Positions 4,203 to 29,505 of a stretch of DNA of 64,000 nt are shown in pieces. The notes below the pieces were generated by a model, which was given only the letters and a program-made list of their open reading frames with translations, did not search any database and was not told the origin of the DNA. This stretch comes from Candidatus Moraniibacteriota bacterium (lineage in GTDB: Bacteria; Patescibacteriota; Minisyncoccia; Moranbacterales; GCA-2747515): the NCBI GenBank assembly GCA_046116545.1, contig CP175956.1:513734-577733 (forward strand). Reading direction: 5' to 3'. How positions within the stretch are numbered: the first letter of the stretch is position 1; each line of letters opens with the position of its first letter. A program made the translations under genes and the position numbers.

Positions 4203-4219
4203 AAGTATAATTAGTAGTT

Positions 4220-4564
4220 TTAATTAGATAATAGGGATATGTCATGCAGCATTGTTACTAAAATCTCGTAAGCCTCCTTATATGTTAGCACTTTATCACG
4301 ATTTGTATAGGATATAATGATATCAAAGCCAGGCTTTATTTGAGGGTATAGTTCTGTCATAACAGATTGTAATATTCTACGTTGTCTATTTCTATTAACT
4401 GCTAGTAATGAGTGTTTTTTACCAACAATAAATCCTATTCTAGAGCACTTTTCATGATTCACTCTAAAAGACAACAACACGCCACTGTGAAAGTGACGTT
4501 TGCCATGTTTGAATACTCGTATAAAGTCTTTGTTGTGTCGAAGTCGTTTAGTTCTGCCCAACAT
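4220..4564 (-). CDS. rnpA: RNase P protein component
   Basis: 114 aa basic protein (LRHNKDFIRVFKHGKR...). Sits immediately downstream of rpmH. Confidence 0.8.
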   Translation of the reverse strand: MLGRTKRLRHNKDFIRVFKHGKRHFHSGVLLSFRVNHEKCSRIGFIVGKKHSLLAVNRNRQRRILQSVMTELYPQIKPGFDIIISYTNRDKVLTYKEAYEILVTMLHDISLLSN

Positions 4565-6512: not shown

Positions 6513-6551
6513 ATTAATTTGTCGGGGGATATAATCTTTTAATAAAAACTT

Positions 6552-11691: not shown

Positions 11692-11837
11692 ATTGAGCTA
11701 TTTTAGTTATTTAAATAGGAAGTTAGTAGATATTATTGAATAAACTAGTGGGTTACTAGTATTTTTATGATTTCATTTGTAATATTCAATATTAAAAGTT
11801 TTTTGTAAATAAACTTTTTTAATTATAAATAATAGAA

Positions 11838-12788: not shown

Positions 12789-12792
12789 AGTT

Positions 12793-13734: not shown

Positions 13735-13751
13735 ATTATTTTTTAAGTTTT

Positions 13752-15155
13752 TTACTTACTAACATCAACTAAAAATTGATGTAGATTTCGTTTGCCAATA
13801 ATTATATCATATTTCATATCACTTCTATCAATAATGTTTACTTGAGCAGGAATTATTTTTTTATCCATTGTAAATTTAGTCTTTACAATAGGGCGAATTG
13901 AGGAGCCACTTGATGCAAAAATTACTGCCACGTCAACTAAATCAGGGATTTTATTTTCAGCTAGAATAGCTTTTTTAATAGACTTTTCGTTTTTTGGAGT
14001 AATCTCGTATTTAGTTAAATCAATTTTATCAAATTCATTTATTACATGTTCAAATCCGAGTGATTTAGCAAGTTTTGTGTCTATTGATGTTGAATAAGCA
14101 CCAGTATCAATTTTTGCTTTTGTTTTAATCTCTGTATTATTTTTTCCGATAATTTTAATTTCTTCAATAGAGCCAATGACATTTTTACCAGACATTCCTT
14201 CAACCTCTTCTTCAATTTCACCACCAAAGAGATTTTTGCCAACAGCTGCTCCACGTATTGCAGATTTAATTTTTAGTCCTTCTACACGTTCAAGTCGACG
14301 TTTAAGTCCTGCCATATTTGCGACTTGGATAGAAAGTCCTGGTCGGGCATTAAGTTCAAGAAATACAGGTCCATTATCTCTATCAATTGCAACATCAGCA
14401 CCTAAAAAACCAAGTCCGGAGGCTTCTTGTGCTTTGATGGCGAGTATTAACATTTCATCCCAGTATGGAATTTTGATACCAGAAAGCAGTAAACGTGTTC
14501 CAGGTACATACTCTATAATTTTTGACTTTCCTTGTACGGCAGTTGTCGTTGTACCTCTAGCCATATCAATTCCAACACCAACACCACCTTGTTGTAAGTT
14601 TGCTTTACCTCCAGATTCTTTTGTGGGAAGTCGAAGCATTGCCATTACGGGTACTTTATTATATATAACAATACGAATATCTGGAATACCTTTATAGGCA
14701 TATGGACGAAACTCTTTTGATAATTTGAGACGTTCTTCAAAAAAAGCTATATCAGGGGTATTTGAAAGGGAATACTCACCATCTAAAATATGTCCTATAT
14801 GAGTTATCAAATCTTCTTTTGTGACTGTTTTGCCATTTCCTTTAATCCAGATGTCATCAGTTCCTTTTTTGCGACCATAAATAACTATAATACCATCACC
14901 ACCAAGACCTTTATTTGGTTTTATAACAAAACTTGGAGGTAGAATACTCCAATCAAAACTTTCTAATGTACGTTTAGAAGAAATTTGTGCAATAAGTCTT
15001 GGGACAGGGACGCCTGCTTTTTTGAGCATACGTTTCGAACGAATCTTGTCATCTGCAAGTCGCTTTGCTTTTTTAAGGTTGTGTGGGCGAATATATGTTA
15101 AATTTCGGGCATTCATCCCAAGTATGTTTTTGCTTGCGCGTATTGATTCAAACAT
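13752..15155 (-). CDS. ATP-grasp ligase (alpha-L-glutamate-ligase-related / ATPgrasp_ST-like) fused to C-terminal retropepsin-like aspartyl-protease domain
   Basis: 467 aa. N-terminal ILGMNARNLTYIRPHN motif, then an ATP-grasp core (...GGDGIIV...FEERL...DIRIVIY...RLPTKESGGKANLQQGGVGV...FLGADVAIDRDNGPVFLELNARPGL). C-terminal ~130 aa with KIDTGAYSTSID (D-T-G-A), compatible with a DUF785 / 'Zn_protease'-type retropepsin domain. Confidence 0.6.
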   Translation of the reverse strand: MFESIRASKNILGMNARNLTYIRPHNLKKAKRLADDKIRSKRMLKKAGVPVPRLIAQISSKRTLESFDWSILPPSFVIKPNKGLGGDGIIVIYGRKKGTDDIWIKGNGKTVTKEDLITHIGHILDGEYSLSNTPDIAFFEERLKLSKEFRPYAYKGIPDIRIVIYNKVPVMAMLRLPTKESGGKANLQQGGVGVGIDMARGTTTTAVQGKSKIIEYVPGTRLLLSGIKIPYWDEMLILAIKAQEASGLGFLGADVAIDRDNGPVFLELNARPGLSIQVANMAGLKRRLERVEGLKIKSAIRGAAVGKNLFGGEIEEEVEGMSGKNVIGSIEEIKIIGKNNTEIKTKAKIDTGAYSTSIDTKLAKSLGFEHVINEFDKIDLTKYEITPKNEKSIKKAILAENKIPDLVDVAVIFASSGSSIRPIVKTKFTMDKKIIPAQVNIIDRSDMKYDIIIGKRNLHQFLVDVSK

Positions 15156-15162
15156 GGGATTT

Positions 15163-15855
15163 TTATTTAATCTTATTTATAACATTGTGAAATCTTAGGT
15201 ACTCATTAAAACGAAGACCTGTCCATTTACCAATGAAAAGATTTATAGGAATAATTAATAAAACAGTAAGTGGGTGGACAAGTATAAGACTTATCATGTA
15301 TCTACCAATAGCAGTAGTTGGTGAAAGAATTGTATATCCAATAAGCGCTATAATTAGCGTTTCAACTGCTAATATAATTGCAGTTTTGTTTCCTTTTTCA
15401 ATTTGTACAGTAACAAATTTTTCAACAAGCATTATTATGATGATAATCGGGAAAATGGCAGTTGATGCAAAACCAGTCCTTCCAAAATATCCAGCAAGTG
15501 CAAGTGTTAAAAGGACGGAAAAGGATACTACAGTTAAGTTTATAGCAACTCTAGGAAGATAAAGTAAACGTAATTTTTTCAATACAAAACGCATACCCAT
15601 ACCAACACAAAGGACTATTGCATAAATAGCAACAGCATATTTAATATCCCAAAAGCTATCTTGTGCAATAAATACAAAAGCAATTGTAATAATAGATGGT
15701 GTATAAATACCAAATGCCTGTATACCAACTATTTGACGCAAAACAACAACGATTGTTATTACTATAGGAAATAACAATAGTAGAGTAATAGTATCTAGAT
15801 TAAGTTGTTGTGCGAGTAAAAATTGTATAATAGGACTGAAGTCAGTTACATTCAT
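15163..15855 (-). CDS. 7-TM integral membrane protein (7TM_transglut-like, no transglutaminase domain)
   Basis: 230 aa with seven hydrophobic helices. 8-nt gap to the ATP-grasp/protease fusion gene. Matches the 7TM partner of ATPgrasp_ST systems by context and topology only. Confidence 0.45.
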   Translation of the reverse strand: MNVTDFSPIIQFLLAQQLNLDTITLLLLFPIVITIVVVLRQIVGIQAFGIYTPSIITIAFVFIAQDSFWDIKYAVAIYAIVLCVGMGMRFVLKKLRLLYLPRVAINLTVVSFSVLLTLALAGYFGRTGFASTAIFPIIIIIMLVEKFVTVQIEKGNKTAIILAVETLIIALIGYTILSPTTAIGRYMISLILVHPLTVLLIIPINLFIGKWTGLRFNEYLRFHNVINKIK

Positions 15856-15882
15856 AGCTTTTGTTATTAAATAGTTATAATT

Positions 15883-16383
15883 CTATTTTGTAATTGTATT
15901 TAAATATTTTCTAGAATTAATGTGACATAGTGCTACAGCAAGTGCATCAGCTGTGTCATCGGGTTTTGGAATACTCTTTAATTTTAACACACTTTTTATC
16001 ATTTTTTGCATTTGCGTTTTGTCAGCTCGGCCATAACCAGTAAGTGATTGTTTTATCTGAAGCGGTGTGTATTCTGCAATTTTTAAACCATCTCTAAAGC
16101 AAGTATTCATAATGACACCACGGGCCTGTGCAACACTTATGACAGTTTTTGCATTTTTAAAATAAAACAAGTCTTCAACTGCAGCTTCAGCAGGTTTGTA
16201 TTTTTTTAAAATAGCAAGTACGTTATCAGTAATTTCTGATAATCTAACAACATCAGACAGTTCTTTTGCTGTCTCGATGTGACCGTATGCAATAACATTA
16301 TTTTTTGTTCCACTATCATTACAGTCAATTATACCCCAACCAACAATAGCAGTACCAGGATCAATCCCAAGTATTCTAATCAT
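15883..16383 (-). CDS. ruvC: Holliday junction resolvase RuvC
   Basis: 166 aa. MIRILGIDPGTAIVGWGII... RNase H-like RuvC start. Confidence 0.85.
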   Translation of the reverse strand: MIRILGIDPGTAIVGWGIIDCNDSGTKNNVIAYGHIETAKELSDVVRLSEITDNVLAILKKYKPAEAAVEDLFYFKNAKTVISVAQARGVIMNTCFRDGLKIAEYTPLQIKQSLTGYGRADKTQMQKMIKSVLKLKSIPKPDDTADALAVALCHINSRKYLNTITK

Positions 16384-16416
16384 ATTTTTATCTTAGAATG
16401 TAGTATTTTAGCACTT

Positions 16417-17124
16417 TTAGGCAACATTGTCAAAGATTTCATTAACATCATCTAGCTCTTCAAGTATTTCGTAAAGATCATCATATTTTTCTGTATCTTC
16501 AGTATTTAGAGTTACTTGTTGTGTTGGATTATATATTAATTTTGCTTCATTTATGGATTCAGCTTCTTTTTCAATTCCTTTTAAGACATTATGCAGACTT
16601 GTAGGACTAGTTATTATTGTTAGATTTGAGTTTTCTTCAAATACATCTTCAGCACCAGCCTCTATAGCAAGTAATTCAGCAGTTTCTATGTCTTTTGGTG
16701 TAATTGATATATAGCCAACAAAATCAAATTGAAAACTTACGCTGCCACTAGGCACAAATTTACCATTATTTTTTTTGAGTGCAGTTTTAACGTCTGTTAA
16801 AGCACGGTTAGTATTATCAGTTGCGCATGTGATAATCATCATTGCCCCACCAGGACCCATACCTTCATAGGTGACTTCTTCAATTCTAGCACTATCATCA
16901 CCAGAGCCTTTTTTCATAGCACGTTCGATATTGTCTTTTGGCATATTAGCTTTTTTTGCTTGGTCTATAGCTAATTTTAAAGCACTATTCATTTCTGGAT
17001 CATTATCTCCATTTTGTACAGCTACCATGATAGCTTTCGCAATACGAGAGAAAACTTTAGATCGTTTAGCATCTGTAACACCTTTTTTATGTTTAATTGT
17101 TGACCATTTACTATGTCCTGACAT
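16417..17124 (-). CDS. yebC: YebC/PmpR family DNA-binding transcriptional regulator
   Basis: 235 aa. MSGHSKWSTIKHKKG... canonical N-terminus. Confidence 0.9.
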   Translation of the reverse strand: MSGHSKWSTIKHKKGVTDAKRSKVFSRIAKAIMVAVQNGDNDPEMNSALKLAIDQAKKANMPKDNIERAMKKGSGDDSARIEEVTYEGMGPGGAMMIITCATDNTNRALTDVKTALKKNNGKFVPSGSVSFQFDFVGYISITPKDIETAELLAIEAGAEDVFEENSNLTIITSPTSLHNVLKGIEKEAESINEAKLIYNPTQQVTLNTEDTEKYDDLYEILEELDDVNEIFDNVA

Positions 17125-17288
17125 AAGTTAGTAGAAGATTAAATATTTTAAAAGTGATTATATCATCTCATTTTTTAGTACTTTTTGCAATTATAGTGTT
17201 GATTTTTTGGACATTATAGCATATGATGTATAATCAGTTTCTAAAAGGAATTATTTGTACTTGAAAAATTAAATAAGGGGAATGTGAG

Positions 17289-18047
17289 ATGAATAGAAAA
17301 ATTGGATTTTCAACAGGTGTTATGTTTCATGTATATAATGCAATGTCAGCTAATATTATTAATATCAGTTCTGATATAGGTTGTGCAGCGTTGGAATTAA
17401 ATGTTCATACATTTCCAGAACATGTTAATTCACTACTAGGACTAAGTGATGATAATGTTATGTTTCGACAACAGTTATCTTGTGCGAATATGGATTCTTT
17501 GTCGTGTCATTTGCCATGCAATATTAATTATATATGCAAGGTACATGATGATGTAATTAGTGCAAAAAGGTCCTTGCAAAATATCGGTATATTCAGTGGT
17601 GTAACAAAACTTGTTAATTATGTTGTGGTACATCCAGATCTTGTTGTGGATTGGGACATTTTTGATGATTTTCCAATTGCTGTAGCAATTGAAAATATGG
17701 ATAATCGTAAAAATACTTTTCGTACACTTCAGGAGTTGCGAGATTTTTTTCAAAAATATCCACAATTCAGATTAGTATTTGATGTACAGCATTGGGTTGT
17801 TAATGATGGTGCTATAAGTGATATCCCAGCTATTATTGCTGAATTTGGTGACAGATTAGCAGGTATTCACCTTAGTGGCGTAGGATCTGATAAATATCAT
17901 GTTCCTGTATGTAGAACGAGACAGCGAGACCTTGTAGAATCACTACAAAACTTGCCAGCACATATCCCAATCATTCTGGAAGGTGTTTGTGAGGATGTTG
18001 ATGAGATGAAGCGTGAATTTGCTTATGTAACAAATATTTTAATATAA
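17289..18047 (+). CDS. Xylose-isomerase-like TIM-barrel protein (AP endonuclease family 2 / Nfo-like)
   Basis: 252 aa. ...HLPCNINY..., IAVAIENMDNRKNTFRTLQELRDFF (cf. Nfo LENTAG...), ...HLSG...DKYHVPV...IPIILEG. Local GC looks higher than neighbours. Confidence 0.4.
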   Translation: MNRKIGFSTGVMFHVYNAMSANIINISSDIGCAALELNVHTFPEHVNSLLGLSDDNVMFRQQLSCANMDSLSCHLPCNINYICKVHDDVISAKRSLQNIGIFSGVTKLVNYVVVHPDLVVDWDIFDDFPIAVAIENMDNRKNTFRTLQELRDFFQKYPQFRLVFDVQHWVVNDGAISDIPAIIAEFGDRLAGIHLSGVGSDKYHVPVCRTRQRDLVESLQNLPAHIPIILEGVCEDVDEMKREFAYVTNILI

Positions 18048-18060
18048 GGAGGAGATAAAA

Positions 18061-18363
18061 ATGAACGAGCATGAAAAAAGCATGGAAGGTCTAGTCATCA
18101 GAGATGACACAGAGACGAGACTTGAGGGATCTAAGGCTAAAATTAAAATATTACAGAATCATATGGCAGATCAGGATGAGCAATTACGTCAGTTTGTTGT
18201 TGCGGTGCGGCACATTCGTGTGGTTCTGGGAAGTTTGCCAAAAGATTGGCATGCAAAGGTGAGTGTGGGTTTTTCTCCAGTAAAGCAAGTTGAGGAAATA
18301 GAAGATATCCTTTCTGAATTGAAGGCTGACAGTTCTGATTGGATACCTCCCAATGAAGATTAA
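18061..18363 (+). CDS. Hypothetical protein
   Basis: 100-aa ORF with a strong SD (aaggaggag) 8 nt upstream. Coupled to the preceding gene. Confidence 0.4.
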   Translation: MNEHEKSMEGLVIRDDTETRLEGSKAKIKILQNHMADQDEQLRQFVVAVRHIRVVLGSLPKDWHAKVSVGFSPVKQVEEIEDILSELKADSSDWIPPNED

Positions 18364-18390
18364 TATTTATTTAAAAGAAGATAGTATAAT

Positions 18391-18424
18391 AAACCAACAA
18401 AGATAAATCTTTGTTGGTTTTTAT
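18391..18424. terminator. Bidirectional rho-independent terminator
   Basis: aaaccaacaaagataaatctttgttggttttt hairpin between convergent genes. Confidence 0.6.
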
Positions 18425-21384
18425 TTACATAAGTCAAATTTTTGTGAAGTGGGTGTTGTAAAAAGATAGGGCTTTTCACATGGTTGGGTTGGTAAATCTA
18501 TTTGTGTAGGCGTATAAGAATATGCCAAGACTTGATTTAATTTCAATGTTTCAGAGAAAGATTGGGCTATTAGAATAGTTTTATGCAAAAGAGAGTTTAT
18601 ATTTTGCAGAAGTGTTACAAACAAGTTTGAATTTGTCTGTACAATATCTCGTGAAGTATTGTTGGAAGAATTGTAAACAGCATTTATGGCGACTTTATTT
18701 TCCAAAATTTGTTGAGAAAACATTTTTTCATTTTTAATTGCTTGAGAAATAATTTGTTGAGTTTGATGTTGTTTTTCTAAATTAACTGGAATGGTCCATG
18801 TCCAGATACCATCAATTTTTTCAAATGATGAATTGTCTTGTATAGATATGTCTTTATGACCATATTTTTGTTTATCGGCAACGGATCCATTTGGACGACG
18901 AATTTCTATAACACCTGTTTTGTTAGGGAGACTGATAGCTGTATATTTTTTGGTTATTTTTTTAGTTTTTCCAGGCTTTAATATTAATTTGTCATAAATT
19001 GGATGATTCACTAAAGTTTTTTCTTTTACTCCTGTGGCGATGCTCCAATTTTGGAGATTAATTTTTTCTTTACTTTCATTTTTTATAATAATATATTCAA
19101 CACCACTATCTTTTCCGCTAGGATTTGGAACTATTTTTGTAATTTCAATTTTGTGTTTGGGGTATTTTTTGACGGTAACAGTGAATTTTTTTATTATTTC
19201 TTCACTTTTATCTTGAATTCGTAGGTTGCCATGATAAGTACCAGTTTTTGTGTATCTGTGTCGAGTTTTCCATAAATAACTTTTACGACCATCACCAAAG
19301 TCCCAACGAACTTTTAATTTCTCGCTATCTTTGTCAGTAGCTTTTGTTTTAAAATTAGCATAAACATTTTTATAAGAATTTTTATCTATATCAAATTTTG
19401 TAATGGTTGGAAGATTATTAAAAACATTCTTTTTGCTAGGTGTTAAATATTTGCTCCATCGCCAACTTTTTGAATCAGTATTGTAATTGTAAGAAATATC
19501 TTCTCGGGATGATTTATAAGATATTGAGCTTACTATTTTTTCGTTTGGTGCTGTGAGTGAGACGGTTTCATTGCTATTATTTAGTGCAAAAGAAAAATTT
19601 TTCCTGTAAATTGTGAAAAATGATTTTGGTTCAATGTACTGTTTAGTTGGAAATGTGTAGGTGCCAGTCTTGGAAGAATCTTTTAGCATCCAATTTTTAA
19701 GGTTAATTTTAATGTTGTTTGGATTATAAATTTCTATAAATTCATCAGTTTTTTCAACACCACTTGGATTTGGAAGTATCTCATTTAATAATAATTTAGG
19801 ATATTTTATAGTGCGTGGATCAATTGCATTTTTTGTACCAGGAGTTGGTTCTGCATTATACCAATATTCAGCATAATTTATAGACTTGCCTTTTTGAGAA
19901 TCATTGTATTTGATTTGTGAAGTAATGGAACAGTTAGGTGCAATGAGTGAAATATTATCTCCAGAATTATTTAGAGTGAACCTGAAATGGTCTTTTGTAA
20001 GTTTGATATAAAGTAAGGTTGTGTCTGGGTTTTTGTTTTCTAATGTTCCAGAAATTGTTGAGGAATCTGTTAATTTCCAACCATCTAAAGATACTTTGTC
20101 AGGATTGTAAAGTTCAATAAATTCTTCTGTTTCTGTGCAATGGGGAGTATCTTTTTTGCAAGGATTAGGATAAATTTCATTTATACGAACAGTACTAGAT
20201 AAATTTGTAGGCAAATAATCACCAGGAAAAGGACATTTGTTTATATGAAAATCAGCTTTATTGTTGTCAGTGTCAATATATTTACCATCTTTTTTATTTC
20301 GCTCAATACTTTCATTTTTGTTTGGACTTTGAGTTGATGTTTCTTCATATAAACAAGTATTTCCGAAGCCAACTTTATCAATGATATTGTCGTTATCATC
20401 GTATAAAATAATCGTTGAATCATTAGTTATGGTAGCACTTTGACTAGAGAATGTAATACTATTAGTCCAAGCAGGCTTAGGATTATCCTTATGTGTGATT
20501 ATGAGATATTTGTGAGCTTCGATCACGCCAGTAAAAGCGCGTGAAGATATAAGATTTTTATCTTTTTTTATTTTATCACACTTATTTTTATCTGTTGTTC
20601 TAGTTATATTTCTTTTCAAACTATAACCATTGAGAATGATATTTTTATCAGTTGTATTATATAATTCTATGTATTCCTCATGATGTTTTGAGTTGGAGGC
20701 GGAAGTATCCAATAATATTTCAGTAATGAGGATAGTTTTTTCTATAATTGGAATATCTTCTAGTGGAATCTCAGATTTATTTTTTGTAAGAGGTTTTGTG
20801 ATAGTTTGTATAGTTTCTTTACTTGTACTTGTAGGTTCAAAATTTATGTCTGTATCACTAGCATCTTGTTTCATTGGAGGAGTTTCAGTATATGCCTCGA
20901 TAGAGTGCTCTGTAGAGATATCTTTTTGTTTAGGCAGGCTTTCTTTTGAAATAGATTCATTTTCAATAGTCTTTTCTTTTTCTTGTGATGTAGTAGATTC
21001 ATTTTGAGATGTGGAAATAGAGTCACAATCCGATTCTACTGTCTTTGTTTCAGATTTATCAGCAGTAATTTTTGTGGATTTGGAGGGTTTTTCATCTTTT
21101 GTAATCGATTTTTTATCTGTATCTTTTTTTGTAGTGGACAGACATGTCTGTCCACTACAGTTATCAACATCTTCTATGTCAGAAGTAGTTATGTCAGATT
21201 TGGATTTCTCACTATTTTTGGTAGAAATAGGCTTTGCATCAGTGGAGTTAGTGGTAGTCTCATCAAGAGAAAAAACACTATGTGAAAACAAAGAAAAAAG
21301 ACAAAATAATAATAAAATACCTTTAAGAAGTGTAGGGGATAATATGGTAAAAACTTTTTTCATACAAAAATAAGTTAGCAACAA
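18421..21384 (-). CDS. Large secreted surface protein with four lamin-tail-domain (LTD) repeats, a PKD domain and a Ser/Thr-rich low-complexity linker
   Basis: 987 aa. Signal peptide, then a long S/T/K/D/E-rich region. Repeated ...NEI(L/Y)PNP...(E/D)(F/Y)IE(I/L)YN(P/T)... (LTD) occurs four times. WDFGDGRKS...GTYHGNLRIQD is PKD-like. Confidence 0.7.
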   Translation of the reverse strand: MLLTYFCMKKVFTILSPTLLKGILLLFCLFSLFSHSVFSLDETTTNSTDAKPISTKNSEKSKSDITTSDIEDVDNCSGQTCLSTTKKDTDKKSITKDEKPSKSTKITADKSETKTVESDCDSISTSQNESTTSQEKEKTIENESISKESLPKQKDISTEHSIEAYTETPPMKQDASDTDINFEPTSTSKETIQTITKPLTKNKSEIPLEDIPIIEKTILITEILLDTSASNSKHHEEYIELYNTTDKNIILNGYSLKRNITRTTDKNKCDKIKKDKNLISSRAFTGVIEAHKYLIITHKDNPKPAWTNSITFSSQSATITNDSTIILYDDNDNIIDKVGFGNTCLYEETSTQSPNKNESIERNKKDGKYIDTDNNKADFHINKCPFPGDYLPTNLSSTVRINEIYPNPCKKDTPHCTETEEFIELYNPDKVSLDGWKLTDSSTISGTLENKNPDTTLLYIKLTKDHFRFTLNNSGDNISLIAPNCSITSQIKYNDSQKGKSINYAEYWYNAEPTPGTKNAIDPRTIKYPKLLLNEILPNPSGVEKTDEFIEIYNPNNIKINLKNWMLKDSSKTGTYTFPTKQYIEPKSFFTIYRKNFSFALNNSNETVSLTAPNEKIVSSISYKSSREDISYNYNTDSKSWRWSKYLTPSKKNVFNNLPTITKFDIDKNSYKNVYANFKTKATDKDSEKLKVRWDFGDGRKSYLWKTRHRYTKTGTYHGNLRIQDKSEEIIKKFTVTVKKYPKHKIEITKIVPNPSGKDSGVEYIIIKNESKEKINLQNWSIATGVKEKTLVNHPIYDKLILKPGKTKKITKKYTAISLPNKTGVIEIRRPNGSVADKQKYGHKDISIQDNSSFEKIDGIWTWTIPVNLEKQHQTQQIISQAIKNEKMFSQQILENKVAINAVYNSSNNTSRDIVQTNSNLFVTLLQNINSLLHKTILIAQSFSETLKLNQVLAYSYTPTQIDLPTQPCEKPYLFTTPTSQKFDLCK

Positions 21385-21449
21385 TATTCCCCTAAATATT
21401 AGTTATAAGAATAGCAAATTGTTTTGTATATGGTCAAATTTAATAATAT

Positions 21450-21478
21450 AAAACCACCAATTTGAATTGGTGGTTTTT
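21450..21478. terminator. Rho-independent terminator hairpin
   Basis: aaaaccaccaatttgaattggtggttttt. Confidence 0.6.
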
Positions 21479-21483
21479 GAAAT

Positions 21484-22029
21484 TTAAGTGGATGTGGCGT
21501 GAGTAGGGGACTTCTTTTTAATCTGAGCCATTATATAGCTTTTTGTTTTATAAGGGTCTCCTACAGAGCGAAATATAAAGTTTGATTGTTCTGCTGCTGT
21601 TTGTACTGTTACATCGCCATAATTTAGGATTGTTTGAAAAAATCCCTTAACATCTGTTGAAACATCTTGGACATGATTGTATTTTAATTCACTCACTTGT
21701 CGTGAAAACAACCCTTTTTGTTCTACGTTTACTATTCTGTCTGTAGTTATTATCCAGATATCTAAATAATAATCAAACCATATTATAAATCCATAAATCC
21801 AAATAAGCAGTAGGAAAAATGTTTGCAAAAAGAAAAATAGTGTTTTGCCACCACCACCTGCAAAATCTTCGAATATATAGGGGTACATTATCGTGCTTAT
21901 TGCCATGAGTGTTAGGAGTCCAAATATTGGAATATATTGGACAAACATATTAAACCAATGTCTGTGTATTATGTGTAGAATTTTTTCATCAGAATGTTGA
22001 GCTGAAAAATAAAAATCAAGGGATTTCAT
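21484..22029 (-). CDS. Membrane protein with bacterial PH (bPH_2/YdbT-like) domain
   Basis: 181 aa. Two N-terminal TM helices, then ...TDRIVNVEQKGLFSRQVSELKYNHVQDV...GDVTVQTA..., typical of a bPH_2 domain. Confidence 0.5.
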   Translation of the reverse strand: MKSLDFYFSAQHSDEKILHIIHRHWFNMFVQYIPIFGLLTLMAISTIMYPYIFEDFAGGGGKTLFFFLQTFFLLLIWIYGFIIWFDYYLDIWIITTDRIVNVEQKGLFSRQVSELKYNHVQDVSTDVKGFFQTILNYGDVTVQTAAEQSNFIFRSVGDPYKTKSYIMAQIKKKSPTHATST

Positions 22030-22034
22030 AATAT

Positions 22035-22262
22035 TTAGTAGTAAAGATTATTATTATAAAACAAATCATTAAATGGAACATTTAAAAACAGAATTACATT
22101 TGCGAGAACTAATGTAATAGTGACAACTATATAAACTGTTATTAAGGGTGTTGTGAATTTAGGATTTATGGAATATTTTTGTAGTCTAGTTATTATGAAA
22201 AAGCTAGCAAAAACAACTGCTAAAATAAACATAAAATAAAGTATAGCAAAGAGTACTAGCAT
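22035..22262 (-). CDS. Small membrane protein (hypothetical)
   Basis: 75 aa with two hydrophobic helices. Overlaps the ruvB stop. Confidence 0.35.
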
Positions 22263-23290
22263 AATTTTTTATTTAATTTTTCATAAGCGTATTCTGTAAC
22301 TACTCTACCACGAGGTGATCTAGCCAGGAAGCCTTGCTGCATTAGATATGGTTCATAGACATCCTCAATAGTTTGAACTTCTTCAGATAGAGCATTTGCA
22401 ATAGTAGAAACTCCTACAGGACCACCATCAAATTTATCTATAATTAGATTTAAGAATTCTCTGTCAGTTGGCTCTAACCCATGTTCGTCAATATCTAACA
22501 TGTCTAGAGTTTTATTAGCAACTATTTTATCAATTGAATCAATATCATGAACGTCAGCCCAATCCCGAGATCTCTTTAGAAGTCTATTTGCAATTCTAGG
22601 TGTTTGTCTGGCTGACCTTGCAATACAAGCTGCTCCCTCGGCGTCTATCTCACATTCTAGTATGGAAGCACTTCTTTTAATAATACTTTCTATATCATCT
22701 TGATTATAAAATTCTAATCTGTGAGTCACTCCAAACCGGTCTCTAAGTGGACCAGTAAGGGAGCCCATGCGTGTTGTTGCACCAATAAGCGTAAACTTAG
22801 GTAAATCAATTTGAAGAGCCTGAGCACTCGGTCCCTTTCCAACAACGAGGTCTAATTTGTGATCCTCCATAGCAGGATAAAGTACTTCTTCAACAGATTT
22901 ATTTAGTCTATGAATTTCATCTATAAATAACACGTCGCCATCTTGCATATTTGTGAGAATTGATCCAAGATCACCAACTCGTTCAATTGCTGGGCCAGAT
23001 GTTGTTTTAATATTTACGTTCATTTCTCTGGCAATGATATTAGCGAGTGTGGTTTTACCAAGTCCTGGGGGGCCATATAATAAAACATGTTCAAGTGGTT
23101 CGCCTCGTTTTTTTGCAGCAGCTAAAAATATTTTTAATTGTTTTTTGATTTTCTCTTGTCCAACATAATCTTCTAATTGTTGAGGTCTTAGAGTGTAATT
23201 AATGCTAAATTCACTAGAAGTTGATTCATCATCTAAATCTATTTTGTCATTTTGTACTTCTGGATCCTGCTCGTGAGTTATTAGTGTCAT
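22256..23290 (-). CDS. ruvB: Holliday junction branch-migration ATPase RuvB
   Basis: 344 aa. [18 protein letters not shown] Walker A and winged-helix C-terminus. Confidence 0.95.
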
Positions 23291-23663
23291 AATAGATTTT
23301 TTAGATTAATATGAAAGTTTTTTCTTTCCCTTGCGTAATATATTGTAGCACTACTTGACAAGATTTCAAAGGTGTGCTAAAGTAGTAAGTCGAGTAAGGA
23401 AGTCTTCAAAAAGCTTTATTTCGACACAATTTTATAGGTTGCTTTTAAAATTTGATATTTTTATGTCTGTAGGCATATTATGGGCTTTACTATCTTTTAA
23501 GCTCATACGGAAGTTATAATCCAGATCGGGTTCTTGTGGTTTCGGCTGCGGCTCTCCTCGATTTCTCTTCTCCCCGCATGAGTCATTGACCTTGCGGGTA
23601 TGCTGCCTACGGTTTTACCTAGGTTAGATGATTGTCTGCAGGCATAAAAATATCAAAACTAAT

Positions 23664-23699
23664 ATAAAAAACCTCTAGAGATAATTCTGGAGGTTTTTA
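23664..23699 (-). terminator. Rho-independent terminator of the PilB-like gene
   Basis: Stem cctccaga/tctggagg followed by a T-run on the minus strand. Confidence 0.65.
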
Positions 23700-23711
23700 T
23701 TTTTGTGGCCA

Positions 23712-26700
23712 TTATAGCGTCGTAACTCGCTTTACTTCTTCTAGTGTTGTTATGCCTTCGAGTGCTTTGAGAATTGCATCTTGTTCCATTGTGAGCATTC
23801 CATTTTCGACGGCTTTTTTCTTGATGTCTGGTGCTAATGATCCGTGAGCTATCATTTCTCGTAAATCATCATCCATTATAAATATTTCACTAATAACTGT
23901 TCTTCCTTTATAGCCAATTCCATTGCACTCCTCACATTTTCCAGGAGTATATAATTTGTCTTGTTGTGGTTGTTCTATTGTTACTTTTGGAGAAATACTT
24001 TCTAAAACGTTTGTAATTATTGATTTGTCAGTTTCAGATATAGGGGTTTCTATTTTACAACTACATAGTACACGGACAAGTCGTTGCGCGATAAACGCAT
24101 TTGTTGCGGTTGTGAGATCATCAGTGCTAACGCCTAGATTTATAAGTCTTTGAATTGCGCCGACAGCATCATTTGTATGTAGTGAAGATATAAGTAGATG
24201 TCCTGTAAGAGCCGCATTAATAGCAGTTGTGGCAGTTTCATCATCACGAATCTCACCAACTAACAAGATGTCAGGATCTTGACGTAATAGAGCTCGGAGA
24301 GCATTGCCAAATGTATAACCAGCTTCTTTGTCTATCTGCGTTTGCAATATGCCATCCAGTTGATATTCAATTGGATTTTCAATTGTAATAATTTTTATAT
24401 CGGGACTACTTATTTCACTTAGCACACTATAAAGAGTAGTTGTTTTACCAGAGCCAGTTGGTCCAGTATTCAACACTACACCATAAGGTTTTGTGACTTG
24501 AGACATTATTCTGTCTAGATTATATTTACGAATTCCTATTGAATGAATATCAAGATTAACGTTATCTCTATTTAACAGTCTAAGTACAATTGTTTCACCA
24601 TAACCTCCAACAATAATTGAAACACGAACATCAACATTTAATTCTGTTTCATCTTCTTTTTCATAATTAATACGAAAACGACTGTCAGAGACACCTTGAC
24701 GTATTGTTGTTGGGATATCACTTATGATTTTTACTTTACTTAATAACAGTGGGTAGCTCATAAGAGGTATTTTGGTGATTGATTGAAGTACTCCATCAAC
24801 ACGCATTCTGATATCAACATATTCTTCTTGAGGTTCTATGTGAATATCACTAGATTTAAGAATTGCTCCATAAGACAGTATTGTAGGAAGCATATCTTTG
24901 TCCTCAGTATCATTGATTGTTTTATTCATCTCATCAAAGTTGCCAGCATTTTCTTCAGCTAGTTTTTGTAGGGAGTATTTAACGAAAATACCACGAGATA
25001 GTGACTGAGACATTAGGTCATCATATAATGATTCGATTAATTCACCTTCGGTTGTAACTCGCATAACCTCTTCAATCGTAGTAACTCCTTCAAGTGCTTT
25101 TAGAACACCATCTTGCGTCATTGTTACGAAGCCTTCTTCGATAGCTTCTTTCATCATGTCGGTTTCACTGGCTAAGTCTAAAATAAGTTGTTCAATTTTA
25201 TTAGACATTGTTAGTATTTCAAAAATACCTATACGTCCTTTATATCCAGTTCCATGACATTTATCACAGCCAATAGCACGATAAATCTCCTTTATTTCTT
25301 TTGGAACAGTTAGCTTTGCCTTTGGAGAAATTAGTGAAATCATTTTCATGAAAGTGTTTTTTGTTTCTTGGGCTGGCTCATAAGATTCTTTGCAGTGTTC
25401 ACATAGAGTTCGTACAAGTCGTTGGGCCATGAAAATATTTGTTGCAGAAGGAATGAGCGTAGGCTTAACACCTAACTCCATCAATCTAGGGACAGTTGCA
25501 ATGGCATTATTTGTATGAAGTGTTGAAAGTACAAGATGTCCAGTTAGGGCAGCATTGATAGCCACATCAGCAGTTTCATCATCACGAATCTCACCAACTA
25601 ATACAACATCCGGATCTTGACGCACAACAGCGCGTAATCCCTTGGAAAATGTATAACCACGATCCTTTGCTACTTGAGTCTGTGATATTCCATCTAGTTG
25701 ATATTCAATAGGGTCTTCAATTGTAATAATTTTTGTTTCTGGAGTTTTAATATGATTTATTAGTGTGTATAGGGTTGTTGTCTTACCAGAACCAGTTGGT
25801 CCAGTTGTGAGTAGCATTCCAGCATTCTTAGCAATATTTTTTTGAATATCTTCAAATGCTTTCCCCTTTAATCCGAGGCTATTAATATCAACGGTAACAC
25901 TATCACTTCGCAAAAGTCGCATCACGAGACCTTCAAATTGTTTCCCAGGAATGGTAGATACACGAACATCAACACGTGTTTCAGGATTTAGCATAAATTC
26001 AAAATGTCCATCTTGTGCAAGATCACGTACATTTATTTTCATTTTACTCATTAACTTGATACGGTTGATGAGTAATTGATAGACATGTTCAGGTATCTCA
26101 ACAATTTTTTGTAAGACACCGTCGATACGATAACGTATGCGAACTGTTTCTCTCTGAGGCTCTATGTGAACATCACTAGCTCCAAGCTTTAATGCACCAG
26201 AAAATAGAATATTTAAAATTTCAGTAGTTGGTAAGGCATCAGCATTATCTTTTAGTTTTAATAATTTTCCAAGACTATCTTCAAAGGCTTCTAAATCCTC
26301 TCCTTCAAGAGTTAGTCGCATGGTATCAATGGAGTCTATAAAATACGCAGTTTTATATTGTCGCAATAATTTATCTTTAGAGGCTTCTGATATTACAAAT
26401 AATTCAGTTTGCCAGCCCTGCCGTGTTTCAAAGTCAGTTATAAAATCTTGCAATGTAGTGCTTTCAGGTGTAGAAGTTGCTAATTTTAACATTTTTCCAA
26501 TACGATGAAATACAAAAATATTATATTTTTTTGCATCATCTTCTGAAATTATAGACACATCTTCGTTGGCAACAGGTATAATATTTAAATCAATATAAGG
26601 AAGCTCAGCTTTTTTTGCTTTTCGTACAGCAAAATCTTCTTCACCTTTAGATTTGAGTTGTTTTAGTGTGCGATCAGTTTCTTTTGCATGCAAAGCATCA

Positions 26701-26735
26701 GTATTTCCTTTGTGTTGTTTTATTTTTATAACCAT
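23712..26735 (-). CDS. Tandem-duplicated type II secretion / type IV pilus assembly ATPase (two complete GspE/PilB modules in one polypeptide)
   Basis: 1007 aa. Two Walker A boxes (TTGPTGSGKTTTLYTL and NTGPTGSGKTTTLYSV). Two Walker B/Asp boxes (VLVGEIRDDETA and LLVGEIRDDETA). Two His boxes (LSTLHTN and ISSLHTN). Two tetracysteine clusters (CEHC...CDKC and CSCK...CEEC). Each module is preceded by a GspE N2-like domain. Confidence 0.8.
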   Translation of the reverse strand: MVIKIKQHKGNTDALHAKETDRTLKQLKSKGEEDFAVRKAKKAELPYIDLNIIPVANEDVSIISEDDAKKYNIFVFHRIGKMLKLATSTPESTTLQDFITDFETRQGWQTELFVISEASKDKLLRQYKTAYFIDSIDTMRLTLEGEDLEAFEDSLGKLLKLKDNADALPTTEILNILFSGALKLGASDVHIEPQRETVRIRYRIDGVLQKIVEIPEHVYQLLINRIKLMSKMKINVRDLAQDGHFEFMLNPETRVDVRVSTIPGKQFEGLVMRLLRSDSVTVDINSLGLKGKAFEDIQKNIAKNAGMLLTTGPTGSGKTTTLYTLINHIKTPETKIITIEDPIEYQLDGISQTQVAKDRGYTFSKGLRAVVRQDPDVVLVGEIRDDETADVAINAALTGHLVLSTLHTNNAIATVPRLMELGVKPTLIPSATNIFMAQRLVRTLCEHCKESYEPAQETKNTFMKMISLISPKAKLTVPKEIKEIYRAIGCDKCHGTGYKGRIGIFEILTMSNKIEQLILDLASETDMMKEAIEEGFVTMTQDGVLKALEGVTTIEEVMRVTTEGELIESLYDDLMSQSLSRGIFVKYSLQKLAEENAGNFDEMNKTINDTEDKDMLPTILSYGAILKSSDIHIEPQEEYVDIRMRVDGVLQSITKIPLMSYPLLLSKVKIISDIPTTIRQGVSDSRFRINYEKEDETELNVDVRVSIIVGGYGETIVLRLLNRDNVNLDIHSIGIRKYNLDRIMSQVTKPYGVVLNTGPTGSGKTTTLYSVLSEISSPDIKIITIENPIEYQLDGILQTQIDKEAGYTFGNALRALLRQDPDILLVGEIRDDETATTAINAALTGHLLISSLHTNDAVGAIQRLINLGVSTDDLTTATNAFIAQRLVRVLCSCKIETPISETDKSIITNVLESISPKVTIEQPQQDKLYTPGKCEECNGIGYKGRTVISEIFIMDDDLREMIAHGSLAPDIKKKAVENGMLTMEQDAILKALEGITTLEEVKRVTTL

Positions 26736-26825
26736 ATTTTTTGATTGTCTATTTATATCTTTAAAAAGTTATAAATAGCTTATTTATTTTATTTTAGTAT
26801 ATCATTTTATCTGTGTATTTGAAAG

Positions 26826-26857
26826 AAAAACTCATCTTTTTAGGATGAGTTTTTTTG
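26826..26857. terminator. Rho-independent terminator hairpin
   Basis: aaaaactcatctttttaggatgagttttttt. Confidence 0.6.
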
Positions 26858-26878
26858 ATTTATATATATTTGTAAAAG

Positions 26879-28096
26879 TTATTTTATTTGTTTTGTGTAT
26901 GGAGCTAATATACTGCAAATCTCTTTTGTTGCAGTAGGTATTGTTGTTGAGGCGAGGGGTAGTCTATAAGTCTTATTTGGAAGTTCTGAAATATTTTTAA
27001 TATCAGATTTATCTAAGTTTATATTAGATCTTTTCATATCAATAAGTGCGATTAATTTAGCCTTTTCATTTTCGTAAAATAAGATGAAGATTTGTCCTGA
27101 TGGATAATTTTCTTTCATTTTTTCTAAGATGGAATAAATATGATGCTTTTTAGCCTCAGTTTGTTCAATGTCTTTGTATGTAAGTGATGAAATGACAGTT
27201 TTTTCATTGTACTTTGATGTCGTAAAATTTTTCATAGCACGACCCCAAAGTTTCAATAGTGAAAAGGGAAGGTTTCTGTATAAATTTTGAATTATTGTTT
27301 GTTGACTTGCTCCAAGCTCTATTAATTTACTAGATAATGTCATGGATTTTGGAGTTGTTTTATTATTTTGAAAGCTGTGTGTTTCACTTATTATTCCAGT
27401 CAATAAACATTGAGCACAATCTTTTGATAAATTATCTTTTTGAAGTTGTTCAAAAATTTCAGCAACCACTTCAGATATAGAAGAAGCAATGTTACTAACA
27501 ATGTTGACTTGTCCAAATTGTTCATTTGAGCTTTTATTGTCTATATTAATAATGGGTAGTTCATAAAAAATATCAGGTATTTCTTCATACAATTTGCCCA
27601 TAGATTCTTTATCAGTTGCTCCAAGTGTAATAATTACATCAAATGGAAATTTGCCAGGTAAAAAAGAAAAATCACGTGAATCCACCATGCCTTTTTCAGG
27701 TGTTACGTATATTTTTAATTCTTCATTTAGGACTTCTGTTTTTACATCTAGAATTTTATTGTATTTTGTATTGAAAGATAGGATTAAATCACGAGTTCCA
27801 GATATTGAATGTGTAATTTTAGTACTAGTTGGTTTAGGTAAAAAACTAAAAAGTGAAATTTGTTCATAAGGGTCATTAAATGCGATTGTGGTTTTGATAC
27901 TTTTGAAGTCACAAAAATGAGCTATCGCAAGTGCTGCAGAAAACTGGTCACCTCTTGGATTTTCTGGAAGTAAAACTAAAACATGTTCACTATCAGTCAC
28001 AAGCTTTTCAAATTGTCTGATTTCCGATTTCGGCATGAGCGAATTTTTTCTTAACAGTTGATAGTGAACATTAGCAATACAAAAAGAAATTGTCAA
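26879..28096 (-). CDS. NrnA-like DHH/DHHA1 family protein with degenerate catalytic motifs
   Basis: 405 aa. Co-linear with B. subtilis NrnA (VLVLLPENPRGDQFSAALAIAHF vs HVRPDPDAYGS...). The DHH motif position reads IDNKS and the GGGH motif is not recognisable. Confidence 0.4.
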   Translation of the reverse strand: MTISFCIANVHYQLLRKNSLMPKSEIRQFEKLVTDSEHVLVLLPENPRGDQFSAALAIAHFCDFKSIKTTIAFNDPYEQISLFSFLPKPTSTKITHSISGTRDLILSFNTKYNKILDVKTEVLNEELKIYVTPEKGMVDSRDFSFLPGKFPFDVIITLGATDKESMGKLYEEIPDIFYELPIINIDNKSSNEQFGQVNIVSNIASSISEVVAEIFEQLQKDNLSKDCAQCLLTGIISETHSFQNNKTTPKSMTLSSKLIELGASQQTIIQNLYRNLPFSLLKLWGRAMKNFTTSKYNEKTVISSLTYKDIEQTEAKKHHIYSILEKMKENYPSGQIFILFYENEKAKLIALIDMKRSNINLDKSDIKNISELPNKTYRLPLASTTIPTATKEICSILAPYTKQIK

Positions 28097-28226
28097 TGAA
28101 TTTTGAAAATCTTAGAAAAGTACTCAATCGAATTGATTGACTTGGGATTAAAAAAATGATACATTTTTTTAATTAGTAAGTTCTTTGTAAAGATAGATTA
28201 AGTTTTTTCAAAAGGAGATTAATTTA

Positions 28227-28571
28227 ATGAATTTTTCAGTATCAGTGCAAAAAATAATAGCATTGCTGTCACTTTATGTGGAGGGCTACGTATTCGTTTG
28301 GGTATTAAATCATTTTTTTACATTACCAATTAGTAGTAGCATTGTGTATTTTATTGTTTTGCAATTTGGGGTTGTGTGGTTTGGTATTTTTGCCATAGCA
28401 ATTGCAGATGCGTATGATACAAGAAATAAAACATTGGATAACCTGTTTTATGGTCAAAAAGTAATTGTGGGAGGACCTAATTTTTTCATCGGAATTTTTG
28501 GTACAATAGCATGTATAATAGCTTTTCCTATGTTAATTATTTTGACTAATCTAAATTATGGAAAATCCTAG
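28227..28571 (+). CDS. Small integral membrane protein (hypothetical)
   Basis: 114 aa with 3-4 TM helices. Confidence 0.4.
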   Translation: MNFSVSVQKIIALLSLYVEGYVFVWVLNHFFTLPISSSIVYFIVLQFGVVWFGIFAIAIADAYDTRNKTLDNLFYGQKVIVGGPNFFIGIFGTIACIIAFPMLIILTNLNYGKS

Positions 28572-28582
28572 GGGTTTATTTT

Positions 28583-28616
28583 AGAGTGATGTTTATATAT
28601 AAACATCACTCTTTTA
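28583..28616 (+). terminator. Rho-independent terminator
   Basis: Perfect palindrome agagtgatgtttatat/atataaacatcactct followed by tttt. Confidence 0.7.
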
Positions 28617-29043
28617 AATTATTTTATTCTAGTGTCACCAGAAGTTATTTTAGAAATATCATTATATTACAAAAAAAATAAAAAAGGAGAAAGTAAATTT
28701 ACATTCTCCTTTTTAAAATTGTAGTATTTGAAGTTTTCAAAAAATGATTATTTTTAGCGGCTTATAAAAAGAGATTCCTTTATAAAAATCCTTTTTGGTG
28801 GAGCTACAGTAGGTGCCTGTATACAGAATCTATGTTGCTTCATGAATCTGTCACTATTGGACAAAATTGCTGCAAGATTAATCTTTGTTAAATCTAATTT
28901 TGCTTTTTTCATCAAGCTTCTCCCATATGTTGAAATTTATTCAAATGTTTTTAATAAACTAATCTACATTTATAATAGTTGGAAAATGAAGAAAACTCAA
29001 GAAATAATTGATTCTTTTGTAAAAATATCGTATTCTACAGGAG

Positions 29044-29505
29044 ATGAAAAATGCAACAACAGGCACAATAGAACAAACATATGAATTAGCTAGTGATTTT
29101 GTGAAAGAAATGGTTAATGGTGGTTTTTTAGTGTGTTTAGATGGTGATTTAGGTGCAGGTAAAACTACATTTACACAAGGTATTTTAAAAGAATTTGAAG
29201 CTCAGGGACCGTATACATCACCGACATTCAATATTATCAAAGAATATGATGTTAATAAATATGGTATTGAAAAAATTTATCACATAGATGCGTATAGAAT
29301 AGGTAGTGATGATATGGAACTCATAGGTTGGAGTGATATCATAGAAAATGATAAAGCACTTATTGTCATAGAGTGGCCAGAAAATGTCAGTGAAATATTG
29401 CCACAAAATAAATTCGTGATATCATGTGAATGGGTAAGTGAAAATGAAAGAAAATATAATTTTAACAGTGTCATTGCGAGGAGGCACAACGAAGCAATCT
29501 CGTAA
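29044..29505 (+). CDS. tsaE: tRNA threonylcarbamoyladenosine biosynthesis ATPase TsaE
   Basis: 153 aa. DGDLGAGKTTFTQGIL P-loop, canonical TsaE. The last 12 codons are encoded by a dispersed repeat. Confidence 0.8.
   Translation: MKNATTGTIEQTYELASDFVKEMVNGGFLVCLDGDLGAGKTTFTQGILKEFEAQGPYTSPTFNIIKEYDVNKYGIEKIYHIDAYRIGSDDMELIGWSDIIENDKALIVIEWPENVSEILPQNKFVISCEWVSENERKYNFNSVIARRHNEAIS
29469..29505. repeat. Dispersed ~37-nt repeat, family B (copy 1, single arm, inside the 3' end of tsaE)
   Basis: tgtcattgcgaggaggcacaacgaagcaatctcgtaa is near-identical to tgtctttgcgaggaggtacgacgaagcaatcttaaaa at 51017-51053. Confidence 0.6.

Follow-up and report, generated by a model that had tools for sequence, protein, structure and literature searches.

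A PilB/GspE-type ATPase with two tandem motor modules in Moraniibacteriota and related Parcubacteria

Results and Discussion

Domain organization of the ATPase

The DNA analyzed here is a stretch of 64,000 nucleotides (the window) from the genome of a Candidatus Moraniibacteriota bacterium (GenBank assembly GCA_046116545.1, contig CP175956.1). On its minus strand lies an ATG-started open reading frame (ORF) of 1007 codons, without an internal stop, that codes for an ATPase of the PilB/GspE type in which two motor modules follow one another in a single chain. Each module (M1 and M2) consists of an N2 domain (N2D) and a C-terminal ATPase domain (CTD). The domains, some of which were delimited in a structural model generated with AlphaFold2 (AF2), are as follows:

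23712..26735 (stop codon included), minus strand: whole ORF, tandem PilB/GspE-type ATPase of 1007 amino acids, identical to protein P0001, recorded at NCBI as 'GspE/PulE family protein [Candidatus Moraniibacteriota bacterium]'
26355..26606, minus strand: N1 domain (MshEN/GSPII-type), amino acids 44-127 (Pfam PF05157; AF2 fold)
25866..26240, minus strand: N2 domain of module 1, amino acids 166-290, with R225, N235, Q241, and G243 canonical and with the arginines R258 and R273
25050..25865, minus strand: ATPase domain of module 1, amino acids 291-562 (motifs)
24903..25049, minus strand: inter-module linker, amino acids 563-611 (alignment and AF2 model)
24528..24902, minus strand: N2 domain of module 2, amino acids 612-736, with R686, R704, and R719 retained and a GGxGET signature gained
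23715..24527, minus strand: ATPase domain of module 2, amino acids 737-1007 (motifs)

The first-pass annotation of this DNA, which gave no strand, had described the protein as two complete modules fused head to tail. Each half does contain an N2 domain and an ATPase domain, but the N1 domain precedes the first module only, so that the chain order is N1 - N2D1 - CTD1 - linker of approximately 49 amino acids - N2D2 - CTD2. The single N1 domain matched PF05157 with 24.7 bits (cut-off, 23.1 bits) and has an alpha/beta fold in the AF2 model, with a predicted local distance difference test score (pLDDT) of approximately 84-88. The Pfam family T2SSE (PF00437; cut-off, 24.9 bits) matched in two stretches with a total of 732.5 bits; the best stretch, amino acids 165-559, covers profile positions 3-370 of 370. 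The ORF was likewise matched in two stretches by both TIGR02533 (GspE) and TIGR02538 (PilB).

A motif search found each of the paired nucleotide-binding motifs reported earlier. The Walker A sequence GPTGSGKT is present at amino acids 312-319 in M1 and 758-765 in M2, and the Asp box reads IEDPIE (amino acids 339-344) in M1 and IENPIE (785-790) in M2. The Walker B boxes (377-385 and 823-831) begin with VGEIRD at amino acids 377 and 823, and the His boxes are STLHT at amino acid 404 in M1 (H400/H407) and SSLHT at 850 in M2 (H846/H853). Two tetracysteine zinc motifs had also been proposed. Four cysteines are indeed present in each half, but the motif of M1 is C445xxC448...C490xxC493, and that of M2 is C891xC893...C934xxC937, i.e., CxC...CxxC rather than CxxC...CxxC. 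The CxC first zinc knuckle of M2 was invariant in an alignment of 86 homologues, which is also the basis of the other residue conservation given for the linker and the catalytic sites. Amino acids 153-562 and 600-1006 were 48% identical over 414 amino acids (E = 6e-131), in agreement with the divergence of the halves previously illustrated with the peptides LVLSTLHTNNAIATV and LLISSLHTNDAVGAI, both of which are present in the ORF.

In the AF2 model the linker consists of a helix, a short low-confidence stretch (amino acids 574-580), and helices that run into N2D2. Y571 in the linker was invariant, and L574, M575, Q577, and L579 were conserved in at least 90% of the sequences. Low confidence was also assigned to amino acids 1-13 and 131-159; the mean pLDDT of the monomer was 79.4, and its predicted template-modeling score (pTM) was 0.53. 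The codon of the nearly invariant M575 (25011-25013) is a conceivable internal start that would give rise to a free module 2. No Shine-Dalgarno-like sequence was found upstream of M575 or upstream of the annotated start of the ATPase.

The two-module gene is genuine and conserved

In order to evaluate how widely the two-module architecture occurs, homologues were drawn from assemblies of NCBI, JGI, ENA, and Logan. P0001, the identical protein, is encoded on four to five contigs from different assemblies and projects, including a 1.29-Mb contig, JGI 3300085957, and NCBI GCA_008633355.1. Among the 120 best database clusters, 117 had proteins of 1000-1049 amino acids that aligned end to end with 52-81% identity, and the named sources of these 120 clusters were Moranbacteria/Moraniibacteriota, the Parcubacteria group, and Patescibacteria. 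Two full modules were present in 132 of 270 proteins examined, and a later search added 16 more two-module proteins. Representatives of clusters at 50% identity included 14 further two-module proteins, 11 of which belong to the main family (978-1018 amino acids; 39-47% identity); the other three (P0129, P0133, and P0138) were kept apart from it. Some of the more distant two-module homologues carry names, 'Parcubacteria group bacterium GW2011_GWA2_47_8' and 'Candidatus Paceibacterota' among them. Thus, the same fusion, which the first-pass annotation had suggested looking for in related genomes, is found widely: more than 130 clusters of full-length two-module homologues, with identities ranging from 81% down to 39%, occur in Moranbacteria, Parcubacteria, and Paceibacterota.

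A fused gene of this kind might arise as an artefact of assembly or gene calling if two adjacent ordinary ATPase genes were joined through a sequencing error. No support for such an artefact was found. Gene calls on contigs of different projects gave the same 1007-amino-acid product, the two-module architecture is kept in homologues at 39-81% identity, and the amino acid sequence of the linker is conserved. At the DNA level, the modules resemble each other in patches of 72-76% identity, at a spacing of 1332-1338 nucleotides, with a maximum of 76% over 236 nucleotides; because there are no long exact repeats between the modules, a chimeric assembly from repeats is not expected. An artefact is therefore extremely improbable, as had been argued earlier from the divergence of the halves, and the results confirm that the two-module gene is genuine and conserved.

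Several proteins nested in the module clades were considered as unfused orthologues and rejected. P0131 and P0144, candidates for M1-only or M2-only proteins, contain part of the neighboring module, and P0135, P0151, P0172, and P0198 are encoded on contigs of 1.9-3.5 kb; all six are probably fragments.

Both modules are apparently catalytic and of the extension type

The residues K318/K764, E344/E790, E382/E828, H400/H846, H407/H853, R258/R704, and R273/R719, as well as all eight cysteines, were invariant. From motif spacing, rather than from an explicit alignment to structure 5TSG, we infer that E357, H413/H420, and R271/R286 of Geobacter PilB are equivalents of these invariant residues. The match of the N2D arginine pairs R258/R273 and R704/R719 to R271/R286 rests on the 15-residue spacing and the motif context. 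In the PilB of Geobacter metallireducens (PilB-Gm), R271 and R286 are the N2-domain arginines that sense the gamma-phosphate (PMC5424180). At the level of sequence conservation, M1 and M2 were shown to be under similar purifying selection, with mean pairwise identities among orthologues of 0.616 (M1) versus 0.611 (M2) for the N2D and 0.72 versus 0.665 for the CTD. A change from Asp to Asn in the Asp box was sporadic, occurring in 4 of 117 M1 and 8 of 117 M2 modules; the one in the window protein is N787 in M2. The possibility that one module of the main family is a degenerate pseudo-ATPase was rejected, because the catalytic residues are invariant in both modules.

When the halves were scored separately against motor profiles, as the first-pass annotation had recommended, both were closer to PilB and GspE than to PilT. 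M1 scored 482 bits against the PilB profile (TIGR02538; cut-off, 675.65), 473 bits against GspE (TIGR02533; cut-off, 630.25), 187 bits against PilT/PilU (TIGR01420; cut-off, 319.1), and 252 bits against ComGA (NF041000; cut-off, 300). The corresponding scores of M2 were 375, 402, 156, and 218 bits. The scores of the whole protein (PilB, 844; GspE, 862; PilT, 329.5) exceed the cut-offs only through the summing of two modules, and whole-sequence scores of tandem proteins may therefore mislead automatic naming. In comparisons with the chain sequences of the Protein Data Bank, M2 scored approximately 300 bits to PilF/PilB and approximately 107 bits to PilT. One module of the AF2 model superposed on PilB (5TSH/5TSG) and PilF (5IT5) with a template-modeling (TM) score of 0.92 and a root mean square deviation of approximately 2.5 Å. 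By its motifs, fold, and relative scores, the protein belongs to the T2SSE superfamily and to its extension-type clade, and both modules apparently are catalytic motors of the extension type.

A division of labor is conceivable in which one module is the extension motor and the other is a PilT-like retraction motor or a noncatalytic regulatory module. M2 resembles PilT in having no N1 domain, the Arg of a QDGR motif is often His in M1 yet always Arg in M2, and the unrelated two-module protein P0138 has one module without the Walker A lysine. However, M2 scores 375-402 bits against the PilB and GspE models and far below the cut-off for the PilT family, and it retains the tetracysteine motif typical of extension ATPases. 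Furthermore, every catalytic residue is invariant in both modules, and the Asp-box variation is sporadic in both. A division of labor is thus very unlikely, and a fusion of PilB with PilT was rejected because M2 scores as extension type.

Each module shares the N2D-plus-CTD fold of PilB from G. metallireducens (5TSG/5TSH/6OLJ) and PilF from Thermus thermophilus (5IT5/5OIU/6F8L), with approximately 40-42% identity. The Walker A motif, Asp box, atypical Walker B motif, His box, N2D arginines, and tetracysteine motif are common to all, and, as in these proteins, an N1 domain precedes the first module. In contrast, every solved chain has one module, whereas the window protein has two, of which M2 differs in lacking N1, in the CxC first zinc knuckle, and in a changed alpha2/alpha2-beta4 surface of the N2D. 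In PilF, it is the N-terminal GSPII domains rather than the motor that occur in several copies. The best sequence matches of the module 1 core were GspE/EpsE proteins (1P9R, 4KSR/4KSS, 4PHT; approximately 345 bits), which have the same order of N1, N2, and CTD but, unlike the window protein, one module per chain. According to the titles or names of the structure entries, the N1 domain of GspE/EpsE is the one that binds GspL (4PHT), and the hexameric GspE of 4KSR required an artificial fusion to Hcp1, whereas the modules of the window protein are naturally linked. The setting of GspE/EpsE, the diderm type II secretion system with a secretin, is not present in bacteria of the candidate phyla radiation (CPR) (PMC6744442).

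Locus context and relationship to single-module PilB proteins

The following features adjoin the ATPase gene:

26879..28036, minus strand: upstream neighbor, DHH-family phosphoesterase of 385 amino acids (weak NrnA-like match), also present in related loci L003, L004, L009, L011, and L013
26824..26856, no strand assigned: terminator-like palindromic hairpin between the upstream DHH gene and the start of the ATPase gene (consensus scan only)
23667..23698, no strand assigned: terminator-like palindromic hairpin (A-run, 14-bp stem, T-run), 14 nucleotides past the stop codon of the ATPase gene (consensus scan only)
22256..23290, minus strand: downstream neighbor, RuvB, also present in L004, L006, L009, L011, L012, and L014

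The number of hits in promoter and terminator scans around the ATPase gene was not above the shuffled expectation, and the hairpins are listed as sequence features only. Further neighbors are genes for a bPH_2 membrane protein, a large LTD/PKD protein, YebC, RuvC, a 7TM protein, and ATP-grasp proteins.

The order TsaE/DHH - ATPase - RuvB - bPH - LTD/PKD - YebC - RuvC is common to the loci L003 to L006, which encode fused homologues with 54-63% identity and a variant with three modules. The same gene order surrounds single-module PilB proteins of 555-565 amino acids on other Parcubacteria contigs (L009, L011, L012, and L013). These single-module proteins (the P0136/P0323 family, P0370, and P0380) have 42-46% identity to the window protein and group with M1. 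Because fused and single-module loci share this synteny, the fused gene is the positional orthologue of the ordinary CPR PilB; the fusion is an elaboration of that gene in place and not an accessory paralogue.

In the window, the gene order conserved in Parcubacteria spans positions 10870-29505 (three ATP-grasp genes, 7TM_transglut, RuvC, YebC, LTD/PKD, bPH_2, RuvB, ATPase, DHH, and TsaE); the LTD/PKD protein (18421-21363) is a secreted protein of 980 amino acids. dnaA and dnaN are located at 5103-7694, next to rnpA/yidC-like genes (3438-4564), and the window thus probably spans the region of the chromosomal replication origin. A functional tie of the DHH phosphoesterase or the Ruv genes to the ATPase is conceivable.

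The conservation of the order DHH - ATPase - RuvB (- YebC - RuvC) and the lack of pilus genes in the window would also fit an ATPase that is not a pilus motor but powers another process, for example as the motor of a competence pseudopilus in DNA uptake or in some other secretion or translocation task, as would per-module scores below the equivalog cut-offs for PilB, GspE, and ComGA. However, the single-module proteins at the same locus are ordinary PilB-like proteins (N1+N2+CTD), and PilB, PilC, PilM, PilN, PilO, and pilins are widespread in CPR bacteria (PMC6744442). Furthermore, gene order near the replication origin of small genomes may persist without functional linkage, and a competence pseudopilus would itself be a type IV filament. 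It therefore seems quite unlikely that the ATPase serves a process other than pilus assembly.

Evolution of the two modules

In order to trace the origin of M2, 128 modules were delimited with hidden Markov models and compared by neighbor joining with 100 bootstraps. The main family contributed 33 M2 modules, all of which fell into one clade that also included the middle module of the three-module variant (Jaccard index of the best split, 0.97; bootstrap mean, 0.94). The M1 modules were paraphyletic and intermixed with single-module proteins. Within one protein, M1 and M2 were 36-53% identical, and M1-M1 and M2-M2 identities between orthologues were much higher. The single M2 clade and this pattern of identities point to a common origin of the M2 modules in one old duplication. 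With the deep branches of the tree being very short, the syntenic single-module PilB proteins may represent either the state before the duplication or a later loss of M2.

In the three two-module proteins outside the main family, P0129 (995 amino acids), P0133 (994 amino acids), and P0138, M1 and M2 of the same chain are mutual sisters (74%, 55%, and 44% identity), which indicates that at least two or three more fusions took place independently of the main family. The internal duplications of P0129 and P0133 appear, from the tree and the identities, to be more recent as well as independent. P0133 (L014, 8001-10985) also adjoins RuvB.

P0138 (1047 amino acids; L015, 8001-11144; NCBI GCA_964384625.1, contig CAYLNH010000035.1) differs in its surroundings, which do not look like those of CPR bacteria (ECF sigma/anti-sigma, sulfatase, and MoxR/BatA). 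It has two soluble T2SSF-like stretches (similar to the cytoplasmic domain of PilC/GspF) at its N terminus, followed by two T2SSE modules, and no Walker A lysine is present in the first of these modules (GPTGSGTTT). P0138 itself is a singleton; related to it are proteins of approximately 610-640 amino acids with a T2SSF-like part and one T2SSE module, one of which is named Candidatus Brocadiia.

The three-module variant, P0020 (1460 amino acids), is encoded in the same DHH-flanked locus (L003, 10001-14383; JGI 3300022698) and was found in one cluster and on one contig. Over the first 80 alignment columns, its middle module was 72-76% identical to its own third module and 25-32% identical to its own first, and at the C-terminal end it was 62-79% identical to the first module and 38-50% identical to the third. 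The middle module is thus a hybrid with an N-terminal part from M2 and a C-terminal part from M1, the product expected of unequal crossing-over.

Asymmetries between the modules

The two modules differ in several consistent ways. The N1 anchor domain is found in M1 only, which leaves one N1 domain for two motor modules. The residues R225, N235, Q241, and G243, in the alpha2 helix and the alpha2-beta4 loop of the N2D, were present in 84-100% of the single-module proteins and in 100% of the M1 modules, and their equivalents were present in 36-61% of the M2 modules. In an AF2-multimer model of PulE6:PulF3, the alpha2 helix and alpha2-beta4 loop of the N2D bind the cytoplasmic repeats of the platform protein, which is internally duplicated, is trimeric, and combines with the ATPase in a 6:3 ratio (PMC10790770). 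The residue losses in M2 fall on exactly the N2 surface modeled to bind the platform protein.

M2 has gained features of its own: the GGxGET signature is specific to the N2D of M2, and R686 and F687 are invariant there. The Arg of the QDGR motif was present in 32 of 32 M2 modules; in M1, this position was His in 19 and Arg in 10 of 32 proteins. Judged by motif spacing, this Arg probably corresponds to R257 of PilB-Gm, whose partner in the open state is the Glu of the Asp box (PMC5424180). The segment between the cysteine pairs of M1 (amino acids 462-478) is conserved, whereas the corresponding segment is variable in M2 and in the single-module proteins.

Possible assembly of the modules into a ring

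The rigid packing unit of PilB is made up of an N2D and the CTD of the neighboring chain, and six of these units build the ring, which has C2 symmetry (CCOCCO), with three different subunit states in each half-ring and with ATP turned over at opposite sites together (PMC5424180). The first-pass annotation had suggested that a covalent dimer would hard-wire the alternating conformations of a C2-symmetric ring. This part of the proposal does not hold. A ring of the order M1-M2-M1-M2-M1-M2 allows C3 symmetry at most, and a two-fold axis would map M1 onto M2; moreover, in the rotary C2 model each position passes through all states, so that nothing is hard-wired. Intact catalytic residues in both modules fit a cycle in which every module takes part rather than fixed roles. 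The suggested stoichiometry, a ring of three covalent dimers, is plausible.

On balance, the protein is probably the ordinary PilB-type extension ATPase of this lineage, in which the motor module has been duplicated and three chains form one six-module ring. The unit duplicated in tandem inside the gene is the N2D plus the RecA-like C-terminal domain. Three of the packing units would then lie within chains (CTD1 with N2D2, tethered by the linker), and the other three would form between chains (CTD2 with N2D1 of the neighboring chain). Such a ring would have only three N1 anchors and would present two alternating N2 faces to the platform protein, canonical in M1 and modified in M2. Because M1 would stand opposite M2, a cycle that operates at two sites at a time could run only with both module types active, which matches the intact catalytic residues. 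The presumed task of the motor is to assemble a type IV pilus-like filament whose genes are located elsewhere in the genome. The module numbers per chain found so far, two and three, are both divisors of six, which is a weak argument for a single ring. P0138 was rejected as stoichiometric support for an in-plane ring, since no second protein of its kind was found and only one ATPase module is present in its relatives.

The platform protein PilC/GspF offers a parallel, in that it has a tandem internal duplication and its three chains provide six equivalent domains, one Cyto domain for each N2D (PMC10790770). However, it is a membrane protein of another family, and the parallel with the tandem ATPase is one of analogy only.

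Several observations weigh against a three-chain PilB-type ring. Neither module alone reaches the equivalog cut-off for PilB or GspE. The relative placement of the two modules was not confidently predicted in the AF2 monomer, as its pTM indicates, and the evolutionary tree is a neighbor-joining tree in which the deep branches are very short. pilC, pilM, pilT, and pilin genes were not found in the 64-kb window or within 10 kb of the ATPase gene in six related loci, and the link to a pilus consequently rests on homology and on the general occurrence of pilus genes in CPR bacteria (PMC6744442). Finally, the relaxed platform-facing surface of M2 would be equally expected if M2 formed a second ring out of contact with the platform.

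Such a second ring is part of an alternative assembly, a stacked double ring of six chains, a dodecamer of modules, in which a ring of M1 modules, on the side of the membrane platform and with six N1 anchors, sits on a ring of M2 modules. Duplicated P-loop modules that diverged after duplication are known from KaiC, ClpB/Hsp104, p97, NSF, and F1/V1 alpha3beta3. Most ring ATPases that are tandem by nature (KaiC, ClpB/Hsp104, p97, and NSF) stack two rings, whereas the members of alpha3beta3 are encoded by separate genes and one of them is noncatalytic; both modules of the window protein look catalytic. The loss from M2 of canonical residues on the N2D surface modeled to bind the platform protein is as expected if M2 stays away from the platform. 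The linker, being conserved and helical in part, does not resemble a free tether, and in a double ring each anchor protein would still be matched by one N1 domain. However, the rigid unit of PilB-type motors spans neighboring subunits, and the ring is already two-tiered (PMC5424180). The arginines that sense the nucleotide are also retained in the N2D of M2, which in addition shows conserved traits specific to it (GGxGET, R686, and F687), and the module numbers of two and three, which divide six, argue weakly against stacking. We know of no member of this superfamily that stacks motor rings. A double ring thus seems unlikely, although less so than a function outside pilus assembly.

The three-chain ring could also have a more specific meaning. 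The functional repeat of the pilus extension motor may be the pair of modules (or, in the three-module variant, the triplet), with three chains arranged as a C3 pseudo-hexamer whose alternating N2 faces are specialized for the two non-identical cytoplasmic repeats of a trimeric platform protein. This idea is tentative, and we regard it as doubtful. If it were true, the register between motor and platform would be locked, and the motor would work by 120-degree steps or by a nonrotating, reciprocating mechanism instead of the 60-degree rotation of the C2 model. The recurrent, independent fusions would then mean that heterogeneity within the ring is both accessible and advantageous for this motor family.

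Implications

The full-text papers that could be searched, an incomplete set, contained no account of PilB/GspE proteins in tandem, double, or fused form or of pilus ATPases of Moranbacteria, and database records name the protein merely as a member of the GspE/PulE family. How ATP turnover is coupled to filament growth in PilB-type motors is still argued, and there is also debate about how the motor contacts the trimeric platform protein geometrically (PMC10790770).

Both a natural covalent dimer and a natural covalent trimer, the three-module variant, make it possible to introduce site-specific asymmetric mutations in which one module is inactivated alone. An experiment of this kind was reportedly decisive for an engineered single-chain ClpX. 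The tandem ATPase also sets a hard constraint, in that the motor, whatever its symmetry, would have to accommodate two modules that alternate without being identical and no more than three N1 anchors. Many uncultivated Parcubacteria form a large group marked by the fusion, and pili are regarded as central to the host-dependent lifestyle of these bacteria (PMC6744442).

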